A DNA stretch of 64,000 nt, taken from positions 19,468,001 through 19,532,000 of the forward strand of contig OZ024746.1 in assembly GCA_964016885.1 (NCBI GenBank). The letters run 5' to 3'. This DNA is from Eledone cirrhosa (Eukaryota). The notes below the pieces were generated by a model that saw nothing but the letters and a program-made list of their open reading frames with translations, was not told the origin of the DNA and made no database searches. Each line of letters opens with the position of its first letter. Position 1 is the stretch's first letter. Shown in pieces: positions 460 to 60,652 of this stretch. The position numbers and the translations under genes were made by a program.

Positions 460-660
460 TTTATTTTATAGAAGGAGCTTCTACAGGACTAGTACTGTTT
501 CATTCAGATGAAATCTTCAGGAGCTTCCTGAAGATTTCATCTGAATGAAACAGTACTAGTCCTGTAGAAGCTCCTTCTATAAAATAAAAAAATGTTTACT
601 CTGCCATGTATTGAGTACCTTACTTACTGTGGTTATCCCCGACTCAACCCGGGACCAACG
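460..660 (+). mobile_element. Fold-back (63-bp perfect arms, 3-nt loop) hammerhead-bearing element, probable Penelope-like pseudo-LTR remnant
   Basis: 460-522 is the exact reverse complement of 526-588; flanked by (TA)n on both sides; contains an HHR and the downstream ACTC..TTGAGT motif. Confidence 0.7.
519..575 (+). ncRNA. Type I hammerhead ribozyme
   Basis: Stem I aggagcttc(519-527)/gaagctcct(567-575); core CTGAAGA 528-534; stem II ttc-atct-gaa with a U.U at its base; GAAA 547-550; stem III ACAG-tactagtc-CTGT; cleavage triplet GUA after 566. Confidence 0.8.
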
Positions 661-758
661 TATATATATATATATATATATATATATATATTATGGAATA
701 CTGTTGGCTTCTTGCTACAATACTTTCTATACCTTTCATTCATTTATATATATGTAAA

Positions 759-806
759 TGGTAGCACAGTGGTCCGGATAACCAAAGATGTGGGTTCGAC
801 TCCCAT
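759..806 (+). mobile_element. tRNA-derived SINE head fragment
   Basis: A-box-like TAGCACAGTGG and B-box GGTTCGACTCCC, but no complete cloverleaf. Confidence 0.4.
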
Positions 807-1126
807 GTACGTCAATACTCATCTTTTTCCATTTCTCCGAGGGTTCTTAACCCCACTATCAGGCTAAATAATTTCTTTAATTTCTTTAGTCAAAATACGG
901 CGATAGCTTACATTTCTAATAATTTCAAACCAACTCGCTGTTTCGAAAATATTCTTACTATATATATATATTTATAACTCTATTACACGCACCCTCTCTA
1001 TTGTTTATATTATGTTATCTCCTGTTCTCAATATTAGGGTATAAATATTGAGTTTTGCCATAAGTTAATCACTACCTTGACTGAATCTTAACCATCTACT
1101 ATGTAAGGGTATGTCATGTATCCTTT

Positions 1127-1193
1127 TATTTTATCTGATGAGGACGTACTGTTGAACTTAACTCAGTACCTCTGAAATATGTATAATAAAATA
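1127..1193 (+). ncRNA. Minimal type I hammerhead ribozyme
   Basis: Stem I tattttat/ataaaata; CTGATGA 1135-1141; stem II gtactg..cagtac; GAAA 1174-1177; short stem III; AUA triplet. Confidence 0.7.
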
Positions 1194-1269
1194 TAATTGA
1201 TCACAAGAATATCTATTTTGTTAATATTTTGAATTTAAAAAAAATATATATATATATATATATATATAC

Positions 1270-1570
1270 GATATATTAACAAATGGAAACTATATTTATA
1301 AAACCATATTTATTTCATGATACATATATTTCAAGGACACTAAGTCAAATTATGGTGCGCTTTCATCAGATAAAATATAATATAGATCAGTTTTATAAAT
1401 AAATATTGACATATCCTTGAAATATGTATAATGAAATAAATATGGTTTTATAAATATAGTTTCCATTTGTTAATATATCTTATTTTTACTCCAATAATTT
1501 GTTGAGTGCTTTATATCAGTTATAAAAATATTTGCTTGTTGTATCCCAACAATTTAAATAGAACTTCTAC
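1270..1570. mobile_element. Inverted-arm pseudo-LTR-like element carrying an HHR (family shared with 12847-13020 and 52950-53190)
   Basis: 1270-1337 is the near reverse complement of 1414-1479; near-identical sequence at 52950-53190; (TA)n flanks. Confidence 0.7.
1311..1377 (-). ncRNA. Minimal type I hammerhead ribozyme
   Basis: Minus strand: tattttat CTGATGA aagcgcac..gtgtcctt GAAA tatatgta TC atgaaata. Confidence 0.7.
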
Positions 1571-58309: not shown

Positions 58310-58530
58310 AAGGGCGATGGATTGGCAGTATCGGTAGAGGGTCGGACGCCATGCTTTGCAGTTTAGAGTTACGGCCCTTTATGATCTGAGTTCAAATCCC
58401 GCCGAGGTTAACTTTGCCTTTCGTCCTTGTGGGGTCGATGAAATAAAGTACCAGTCACGCACTGGGATCAATTTAATCGACTTTCCCCTCCCCAAAATTG
58501 CTGGCCTTGTGCCTATATAAGAAACCAATA
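58310..58530 (+). mobile_element. SINE family A
   Basis: Core match. Confidence 0.8.
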
Positions 58531-59347
58531 TTCTAGTCCTTAAATCACGGGTTCCCTATAAATTTACACCCAGGTCTAAATATCTTCTACTCAGGGAGTA
58601 AATTTGATGATTCCCGGACCGGGCGATACATTATGTCCTTGAACAAGACACTTTATTTCACGTTGCTCTTTCTTTATGTCAAGAGTTGCGACTGGTAGAT
58701 GGTATCAGCAATAGAAAGACCAATGGAAGCATTATTTCCTTGGTCCGATTTGACGAGTTCCACCCCACTCGGTAAGTGAATGAGGCGTGGAGTCTTGTCT
58801 ATGGGAATTCTCTCATTGGTTGACTTCTCATTATCTGAATACTTCTAAAGGAATTTTCGGCCTTGAAATTGCGAAGATATTTTCAGTGAGTTAGTATGTT
58901 TCCCCACTCGCCATATTCAGACTGCGAAACTATTTGTATGTTTGCAGCACGCGCGCGCATATATGTATGTGTGCATGTATGTATGTATGTGTACGTGTGT
59001 GCATGTGTGTGTTTGTGTGTATGCATGCGTGTGTATATGTGTGTGTGTGTGTGTCTGTCTGTGTGTATATGTGTATGCGTGCTTTTGGGTGTGTTTGTTT
59101 TTGTGTGTGTATGTGTGTGTGTCTGTATGTGTGTGTACATATGTATATCCAACTAAAACTTTTCGTCTAAGAAGTAATGTTTACGATAAAATTAGTTTGC
59201 TCATCGCTGAAAGGGAGAAGTTTCCTTTCTCGACTTCCCCAGGAAATAAAGGAAAGACTTCAAATACAGAAAGACTTGTTGCTATTGGAAACAATCTGAA
59301 GACAGTAGTTCCTGTCGTTATATTTTAAGCAGAAACTATGGAAGCAA

Positions 59348-59545
59348 TAATAATTGTTTCTACTTTTGGCACAAGGCCAGCAATTATCCCAGTGCATTAC
59401 TGGTACTTTATTTCATCGACCCCGTAAGGATGAAAGGCAAAGTTAACCTCGGCGGGATTTGAACTCAGAATGGCAAGGGCCGTAACTCTATGCGTTAAAG
59501 CATGGTATCCGACCTTCTGCTGATACTGCCAATCCACCGCCATAA
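59348..59545 (-). mobile_element. SINE family A
   Basis: Core match. Confidence 0.8.
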
Positions 59546-60059
59546 TAATTGTTGGAAGGTGCGTGGGTTTAGATTTGGTTGCTATTTCTAGCAGGTGAGA
59601 TAACCGCATAGAGGCTCCCAATTTTGCCAGACTTTGTAGTTGGATATTGTTAATGGTGTAACCGTAGTAAGTTATTATTTAGTCCAAAGTTAGACCTGAT
59701 TAAGCAGACGCACGATCAGTCAAAAAATGTCATTTTTTTAATTGTGGTATTTCGTGTTGCTGTTGTTGTTGCTGTCGTTGTTGCTGTTGTGACTCTTGTC
59801 ATTTCTGCCATTAAAGAAAAGAGAAAAGAATAACATACAAACAGGAGTGGCATTCACGTTAACACTCTGGAAAATTTCAACCGAAAAGATTTAACCATAT
59901 GGAAATATTTGACACTATCTTGGAAAATATTTAGGATAAACATCTATATTTAGACTCTTAAACATTAGAGAAAACACAAACACTAGTTACACACACACAC
60001 ACACACACACATAGCGTTCATACGCACACACACACACACACGCAGGGACACGCATAAAT

Positions 60060-60255
60060 ATATTCATTTTATTAAGGCTAAAGAGTGAATCTTGTTACTC
60101 TGGAGTTTCTCCTGGTTTTCGCAGTCATCAGACGAGACCCTGTGTGATGCAGGCGAAATTCCTAAGTACAAATGTCACTACTCATATAGCCTTAATAAAA
60201 TGAATATTTAAACTCTACTTCGGCATTGAGTACTCTTTTCTCTCGACCGTCAACT
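60060..60255. mobile_element. Fold-back element with a minus-strand hammerhead (60090-60137)
   Basis: Arms 60060-60080/60187-60207; minus strand tctcgt CTGATGA ctg..cagga GAAA ctccagag TA acaaga. Confidence 0.7.
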
Positions 60256-60469
60256 ACATACCGATATATACATCTCTCTCTCTCTCTCTCTCTCTATATA
60301 TATATATATATATATATATATATATATATATATATATATAATATATATGTAACTGGGGGAGGGGGTAGGAGGGACATGTTGTGGAATAAAAAGAGGGGGT
60401 GGAGTGGGGGGCGTCTGATAAATTAATAAGCGGAGGTGGGGGCAATTATTCAAGATCTGAGAATACATG

Positions 60470-60652
60470 AATTATTGACGGACGTAAGAATGAACACTCA
60501 ATACCGAAGCGGAGTTTAAATATTCATTTATTATAGCTAATCCTTGATACTCTGGAGTCTCACCTACGTACTCACCAGACAAGACTGGTGATCCTGTGAG
60601 TGCGCAGGTGAAACTTTAGAGTAATAAAGGTCACTAATAGCCATAATAAATG
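60470..60652. mobile_element. Fold-back element with back-to-back degenerate hammerhead cores
   Basis: TCACCAG acaaga CTGGTGA (60572-60591); tcctgtg..cgcaggt GAAA ctttagag TA; arms 60525-60539/60638-60652. Confidence 0.65.

Follow-up and report, generated by a model that had tools for sequence, protein, structure and literature searches.

Penelope-like elements (PLEs) that carry an endonuclease leave insertions of a characteristic anatomy, with an inverted copy and an optional tail, in the published accounts (PMC8557442, PMC3846280), and copies of more than unit length are reported to be needed for further mobility (PMC4209133). The tail has long been recorded, and one study tied it to two internal starts of the reverse transcriptase (RT), leaving unnamed what defines them. 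According to the text of that study, the tail of PAc, a Poseidon element, is the stretch between two internal RT start sites, the required RNA includes the tail, the protein is predicted to be a dimer, and cleavage by the hammerhead ribozyme (HHR) is dispensable in vitro (Frangieh et al. 2024, PMC11167929). Here we describe a bulged hairpin that stands at the start of the tail in PLE insertions within a 64-kb stretch of DNA from Eledone cirrhosa (contig OZ024746.1, positions 19,468,001 to 19,532,000; hereafter the window), and that recurs, together with a second copy of itself, at the ends of related elements elsewhere.

As far as the PAc text goes, the likeness lies in an optional extension between two discrete ends, internal initiation on RNA (as we propose below for the hairpin elements), an AT-rich target and an HHR upstream. 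The PAc start sites, however, lie inside the open reading frame (ORF) at an AC-rich stem-loop, with a tail of 30–40 nt and no conserved motif given, whereas in the hairpin-bearing PLEs the tail is a non-coding leader of about 50–90 nt and a conserved bulged hairpin follows each end. The Hydra clade is similar in its (TA)n targeting, its canonical HHR near the 3′ end and its C-terminal GIY-YIG domain with a CxCx5C linker (Craig et al. 2021, PMC8557442); the main text of that paper contains neither "hairpin" nor "bulge", and uses "stem" only for the HHR. Among stringent non-LTR (long terminal repeat) retrotransposons, short stem-loops needed by the element's own protein for template choice are described for R2Bm, in which two of them affect template positioning (PMC11194090), and for eel UnaL2, whose stem-loop has an internal loop (PMC1636434). 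By these accounts they stand upstream of the RT start, and every insertion receives a copy of them, whereas the PLE hairpin lies downstream of the start, would go uncopied when used, and is paired to match two ends. The PLE tail is already known, and we found no description of a bulged hairpin at its ends in the literature consulted, including the available text of PMC8557442, PMC3846280, PMC13282606, PMC7229834 and bioRxiv 10.64898/2026.07.22.740005, with Repbase entries, subscription papers, preprint supplements and the PAc figures and GenBank file outside the scope of this search.

All nine sites of the motif in the window sit inside PLE stumps of 150–300 nt inserted in (TA)n. A stump reads, in order, (TA)n, an inverted 5′-truncated arm, a junction, a direct arm with an HHR or its remnant, a tail, and (TA)n, and because this layout of arms and tail fits the published anatomy we take the stumps to be copies of endonuclease-positive PLEs. 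The tail is the extension absent from the inverted arm, and the motif stands at its start; we call the end without the tail the short end and the end with it the long end. The inverted arm ends at the short end in eight of the nine insertions (that at 53032 retains only a piece of its inverted arm), and a (TA) run is present at the outer end of all nine and at the long end of eight. By eye, the HHRs of two of the groups defined below, A and B, match the Hydra-clade layout (core, short stem II, GAA-AC stem III) given in File S2 of Craig et al. 2021 (PMC8557442); stem III of group D is longer than in that layout, and group C (GAAA-TATG) matches nothing in the layout table. The window groups are thus placed only putatively in the Hydra clade, by HHR layout, target and motif. 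None of the 23 window ORFs scanned, out of 84 listed, is a PLE ORF, and an Rfam search of the window gave no match at gathering scores. A non-LTR retrozyme was considered and rejected: the HHR-bearing unit forms no tandem array in the window, and the copies are single fold-backs.

The window is AT-rich (33% GC) and rich in microsatellites, with the composition of animal-type DNA, and an initial annotation of it had proposed a shared motif after hammerheads of unrelated families. All nine strings that it reported are present where it placed them, the coordinate of each minus-strand site being the low end of the site. The motif is real and commoner than in shuffled background: the pattern ACTCYN{6,14}DTYGAGTR matches eight times in the window, against a mean of 0.24 and a largest count of 2 in 100 dinucleotide shuffles, and the ninth site, at 20499 on the minus strand, has GATT where the others have GAGT. 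When a covariance model is built from six sites, the three left out come next in its ranking (E 0.009–0.1), and its only further match in the window up to E 5 lies at E 2.5. The nine sites fall into four alignable groups, A (598, 4310), B (20499, 60212, 60515), C (1488, 12938, 53032) and D (47506), between which BLASTN at E<1e-4 finds zero matches; groups A and B have some upstream sequence in common. Hence the sites do not all derive from one alignable family, and the claim of unrelated families stands for a cis-element common to non-alignable groups, and to other phyla too, although nine sites amount to four groups. The further claim that each site lies downstream of an HHR holds in part: an HHR or a remnant is near most sites, but an intact CTGRNGA core is on the motif strand at only three of the nine (cores at 528, 53134 and 60578). 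Four have a core on the inverted arm only, so that seven have one on either arm; at 47506 the ribozyme survives only as its 3′ half, and no HHR core is present at 12938.

The element consists of RCTC, a 3–6-bp stem-loop, a 2-nt bulge and GAGY-RC; that is, a 4-bp lower stem (RCTC/GAGY) with a 2-nt bulge on its 3′ side, a covarying upper stem of 3–6 bp, and a following RC. The pairing of ACTC with GAGT was correctly foreseen, but the supposed variable loop is a second stem followed by the bulge. MAFFT left the upper stems unaligned, and covariation was therefore counted from the anchors ACTC and TYGAGT over the next three positions. In register, 24 of 27 cells pair in the window, compared with 3–10 in slid registers and a mean of 18.9 when arms are swapped between sites (p 0.013); for the six sites of equal length, 90.5% of cells are paired, and 11 of 500 shuffles are equally high. 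At the first lower pair the window sites have A-T, six metagenome loci G-T and the bin described next G-C, and two of the three group B copies have a C-TTCG-G loop.

An independent set of elements is provided by G001, a 12-Mb bin reached through a GTDB scan. It is filed as a bacterial genome and holds many animal retroelements with hammerheads (L252–L254, for example), which points to host contamination. Copies were picked by an HHR pattern with no hairpin term (110 matches, 26 for the control), and the 100 listed of these matches gave 95 distinct HHR copies. The hairpin anchors are present in all 12 long-ended copies, in which a TA run starts 95–125 nt after the cut site, as against one of the 19 short-ended copies (TA within 65 nt), this exception being a tail copy with an inner TA patch. 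They are also found in two of the 64 copies without TA, both from TA-targeting families; the remaining HHR families, some with tails of their own, have no hairpin. In the 12 non-redundant hairpins, found by the sequence anchors alone, 32 of 36 upper-stem cells pair, whereas arm swaps average 20.1, none of 20,000 reaches 32, and slid registers give 9–18. Both-sided changes occur at all three upper pairs (pair 1, CG 6 and TA 6; pair 2, TA 4, AT 4 and GC 2; pair 3, CG 7 and GC 3), and the bulge is TT in seven, TC in three and TA in two.

A pattern for the hairpin alone gives 35 matches in G001 and four for the reversed control; the first 30 loci represent 25 distinct contexts, of which 19 are PLE-type and six not evidently so. 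In L252, L253 and L254, RT motifs and a GIY-YIG-type domain lie directly upstream of the HHR and hairpin, and (TA)n follows the hairpin in L252 and L254. The Pfam GIY-YIG model matches in L254 only, at E 3e-4, below cut-off; a CxCx5C linker is present in L117 and L252–L254, and MRWK and DKT in L222, for which L252 has the variants MRWR and NKT. The covariance model trained on the window had no match among the 150 candidates scored, of 1,996, in G001, probably owing to the G-C first pair there. Two loci in this bin have unusual arrangements. L224:1501–1620 holds two hairpins 96 nt apart that come from two nested tail copies, and at about 493 of L132, on the minus strand, a hairpin directly follows a TA run and an HHR ending in TA lies ~85 nt later, possibly a mini-element with the hairpin before the ribozyme.

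The spacing of the hairpin is tied to the end of the element (5–12 nt) and not to the hammerhead. In the window the short end precedes the hairpin by 6–10 nt at six sites; in G001, 11 of 14 short-ended copies that could be matched to a hairpin family end 7–12 nt before the hairpin, covering seven of eight families, and the cut site lies 36–61 nt from the hairpin. A second hairpin is found in L252, a near full-length, frameshifted element that reads (TA)n, hairpin 1, hairpin 2, ATG, ORF, HHR, a copy of hairpin 1, and (TA)n. Its two hairpins are 68 nt apart in the 5′ leader, with the ATG 20 nt after hairpin 2, and its 3′ tail repeats the leader and ends 8 nt before the position of hairpin 2. A second family, L222, has its second hairpin 8 nt ahead of the apparent start of the ORF, and the tail ends 6 nt before that hairpin. 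Since the tails of L252 and L222 repeat the leader and stop just before hairpin 2, the PLE tail is the stretch of leader from one hairpin to the other, and a hairpin follows immediately 3′ of each end. Almost all short ends, and the L252 long end, coincide with a TAT or TATA patch. C575, a third 5′ leader from this bin, is rearranged and lacks a hairpin.

The short end is also visible in reads mapped to the group C copy at 52950–53140 (4,319 X1 contigs, 26,987 X6 reads and 30,019 X7 reads); these are restriction-site-associated DNA reads, which sample loci unevenly. There is one dominant short end, at which 9,977 and 11,055 reads break off into TA, 5 nt before the hairpin in the mapped copy, and the X6 depth falls from ~25,000 upstream to ~6,000 across the hairpin. 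A longer T run is present at this end in about half of the tail reads. No variant above 3% is listed at the 12 stem positions, and three of the four loop positions and the second base of the bulge vary.

TA-targeting PLEs of several animal phyla have the motif in common. The hairpin is clear, by eye, in three of six Hydra-clade consensus sequences in the supplement of PMC8557442: Hydra-2_Amil (coral) and Hydra-2_Ajap (sea cucumber) have it about 40 nt after the HHR with GCTC/GAGC, and Hydra-1_Ajap has it twice, its consensus opening with two hairpins before the ATG. Variants stand at both ends of Hydra-1_Crog, and no clear hairpin is seen in the Hydra-1_Amil consensus, in which a weak look-alike was rejected as resembling the pseudo-LTR (pLTR) sequence before the short end in L183 and L206. 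A scan of metagenomes for the motif together with TA yielded 92 loci, or 67 without redundancy, the majority apparently chance matches. A Hydra-type HHR half lies upstream in four of them (p 0.002; background 0.8%), and in three of these four all three upper pairs form, compared with ten of the 63 others (p 0.02, under a more permissive automatic rule); two more loci, L031 and L045, were picked out by eye. In Naiad_Mmer and L031 the hairpin lies about 100 nt after the stop codon, and frames upstream in L031 resemble the C-terminus of Naiads by eye. L031:300–700 is a degenerate Naiad-like 3′ end, with a hairpin of 6-bp upper stem in the same place as in Naiad_Mmer and different flanks. By eye the hairpin of Naiad_Mmer comes after a segment resembling a selenocysteine insertion sequence (SECIS), and identity of the motif with a SECIS was rejected; no hairpin is seen by eye in three octopus Naiads. 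A viral scan with the strict hairpin gave 23 loci, which look like chance and have no TA run, and two patterns of HHR plus hairpin gave none. In the GTDB scan, seven of 12 loci, all outside G001, show no TA run or HHR core in the displayed sequence and also look like chance.

From the structure, its covariation, its restriction to TA-targeting families in G001 and its positions, we infer a mechanism of RT docking and priming, in which the hairpin, standing where the tail begins, is probably an RNA signal to which the RT binds and which places the start of synthesis a few bases upstream. A transcript reading from one unit into the leader of the next would present both hairpins. The GIY-YIG domain would nick (TA)n, the RT would dock on either hairpin, and the nicked end would prime at the UA-rich patch just 5′ of it, 5–12 nt upstream. 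Docking on hairpin 1 would give a short-ended copy, and docking on hairpin 2 a long-ended copy that includes hairpin 1, that is, a tail; one start from each nicked strand would produce the inverted-plus-direct stumps. The hairpin that is used would stay uncopied, so that solo short-ended copies would lose the signal, which may be why more-than-unit copies are needed. We hold with slightly more than even confidence the fuller reading, that paired bulged hairpins are rulers setting both RT starts from the 3′ side in Hydra-clade PLEs, that the tail is the spacing between them, that the location of the signal in the next unit accounts for the need for tandem copies, and that some Naiads use the module too. 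Among the three roles offered in the initial annotation (RT recognition, promoter, 3′ processing), RT recognition is the best reading; the PLE stumps, the location at the tail, the covarying stem with its bulge, and the two copies matching both ends had gone unseen there.

Several observations weigh against this account. The docking step is drawn from sequence and position. The window hairpins are of low stability (−0.5 to −5.1 kcal/mol, z −2.6 to +0.5), the full bulged form is the minimum-energy fold at only two of the nine sites, and the departures from Watson–Crick pairing in the upper stems are equally divided between G-T and A-C, three of each, so that these stems do not indicate the strand of the hairpin. 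In the group C reads both letters of the third upper pair vary, and the difference between the stem (0 of 12 positions variable) and the rest of the tail (7 of 44) is not significant (p 0.17). Related families share ancestry, and the shuffle counts are therefore not probabilities. The spacing has departures: scripted offsets are 2 at 598, ambiguous because of a slippage repeat, and 15 at 1488, ambiguous because of an inner ATAT (7 by eye), and three short-ended copies in G001 are off-range at 0, 3 and −13. Hairpin 2 was seen in two G001 families and one published consensus only, and not in E. cirrhosa; no copy in the window extends beyond the long end or is connected with an ORF. In Naiad_Mmer and L031 the hairpin is within the 3′ untranslated region and homologous sequence continues past it, and by eye no hairpin is clear within the first 280 nt of Hydra-1_Obim.

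The hairpin might instead be read as DNA, in the duplex or in single-stranded cDNA, by the GIY-YIG endonuclease, the two ends then being cut sites at a fixed distance. Homing enzymes of the GIY-YIG type cleave at a fixed distance from the site they recognize, and the spacing of 5–12 nt suits a nuclease ruler equally well. The endonuclease of D. virilis Penelope, moreover, needed the tail for recognition and cleavage, as cited in the text of PMC11167929. Yet the upper stem stays paired while its letters change, and recognition of a duplex would not need pairing; the first-pair G-T of the six metagenome loci and the C-TTCG-G loop in group B suit RNA; and the two ends of PAc map to RT start sites on RNA (PMC11167929, text). 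We regard DNA recognition as unlikely. A similarly small chance is given to the proposal that the twin hairpins serve control in the 5′ leader, as translation feedback or part of an internal promoter, with the ends set independently by (TA)n primers annealing to UA-rich patches that lie ahead of them by chance. This would account for hairpin 2 standing so close to the ATG in L252 and to the apparent start in L222, and for the TAT or TATA patches; an internal promoter is also placed in this region of Penelope by the text of PMC8557442. These regions are AT-rich throughout, however, yet each family has one short end at a near-fixed distance from the hairpin, a promoter motif would not need covarying stems, and an end lies just upstream of both hairpins, not only the one near the ATG.

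That the motif is a poly(A) or splice signal, or a functionless ancestral remnant, is very improbable. The initial annotation saw it often after an AATAAA-like run, but AATAAA lies within 40 nt upstream at only four of the nine window sites and at none of the six metagenome sites, which leaves 3′ processing unsupported; an AG abuts the motif in three of the six metagenome loci, but at no window site. Groups A and B do have that upstream sequence in common, as descent alone might leave it, but flanks cannot be aligned between groups while compensatory change keeps the pairing. The motif was also considered as stem III of an HHR and rejected, there being no GAAA before it and a G at the would-be cut site in four of the nine sites. 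RT docking on RNA thus remains the preferred reading.

The group A stump at 471..660 (+) lies between (TA)n runs and has an inverted arm, a junction, a direct arm with HHR, and a tail that ends at 660. Its hammerhead (522..572, +) is a complete type I ribozyme of Hydra-clade layout by eye, with its core at 528 and a predicted cut after 566, and its hairpin (598..616, +) has the upper stem T-A, G-T, C-G. The second group A stump (4160..4351, +) has its HHR on the inverted arm (core 4222), a 60-nt piece of a short interspersed nuclear element (SINE) at 4235–4293 in place of most of the direct arm, and a hairpin (4310..4329, +) with a broken third upper pair, 10 nt downstream of the short end. 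In group B, the stumps at 20449..20641 (−) and 60064..60263 (+) have the HHR core on the inverted arm (20571 and 60131), and that at 60465..60652 (−) has cores on the direct (60578) and inverted (60585) arms; the last has no TA run at its long end, and its boundary is therefore approximate. Their hairpins are at 20480..20499 (−; GATT for GAGT), 60212..60231 (+) and 60496..60515 (−), the latter two with the C-TTCG-G loop, and the short ends lie 6, 8 and 9 nt upstream, respectively. The group C stumps are at 1269..1570 (+; inverted arm with an HHR of core 1369 on the minus strand, direct arm, tail), 12843..13020 (+; without HHR core) and 52950..53188 (−; core 53134, full tail), with hairpins at 1488..1507 (+; upper stem C-G, A-T, A-T), 12938..12958 (+; TC bulge, short end 7 nt upstream) and 53013..53032 (−; the family short end maps to about 53038). 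A relative at 1097..1243 (+) has a full HHR (core 1135) and stops at the short end, with no tail or hairpin. The group D stump (47435..47624, −) is a 93% palindrome with the 3′ half of an HHR and a long stem III; its hairpin (47483..47506, −) has a 4-bp upper stem, and its short end is 8 nt upstream.

Four further HHR-like pieces in the window lack the motif, namely 1135, 2630, 19274 and the fold-back 39870–40199. Those at 2570–2645 and 19235–19290 are decayed remnants of Hydra-type hammerheads with no hairpin downstream. The fold-back has an HHR-like 3′ half on each arm, its arms end at the same base by TA, and it has no tail or hairpin; it is possibly a short-short insertion. As judged by eye, group A and group B arms have 5′ ends that gather at the 5′ edge of stem I of the HHR or at the first base of the core, and not at the cut site (520–528, 4222–4230, 20571, 60131, 60578–60585). 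Three group C arms apparently start at the same string AAGG(G)TATGTCA, 30–50 nt before the HHR core (1102–1114, about 1410–1420 on the minus strand, and about 53135–53150), which may be the fixed 5′ end of a short non-autonomous unit.

Other repeats accompany these insertions. An abundant SINE-like family of ~190 nt, which we take to resemble cephalopod SINEs, is represented at 24502–24690 and by about 20 more copies; a 60-nt piece of it lies within the 4310 insertion, and the insertion at 47506 has another copy next to its long end. Other fold-backs, with neither hammerhead nor hairpin and resembling miniature inverted-repeat transposable elements, are at 39334–39578, 22372–22554 and 41161–41370. 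A 265-aa frame at 25909–26703 (−) encodes an RT of long interspersed nuclear element type (RVT_1, E 1e-27) followed by a PHD-like finger, and is unrelated to the hairpin stumps as far as tested.

A further functional parallel is the template-boundary element of telomerase RNA, an RNA stem to which a sister-group RT binds, which sits at a constant distance from the stretch that is copied and which stops synthesis at the 5′ side of a short template. The PLE hairpin differs in that it would set a start from the 3′ side, and the likeness drawn here is one of function. A structure of 20–30 nt whose position predicts both ends makes the spacing testable in the sister group of telomerase, and twin hairpins could explain why only tandem copies stay mobile. 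Curators can also use the hairpin to locate both 3′ ends and the true 5′ end in Hydra-clade families and, if it is a portable start signal, it would be a minimal cis-element for RNA-templated insertion into (TA)n.

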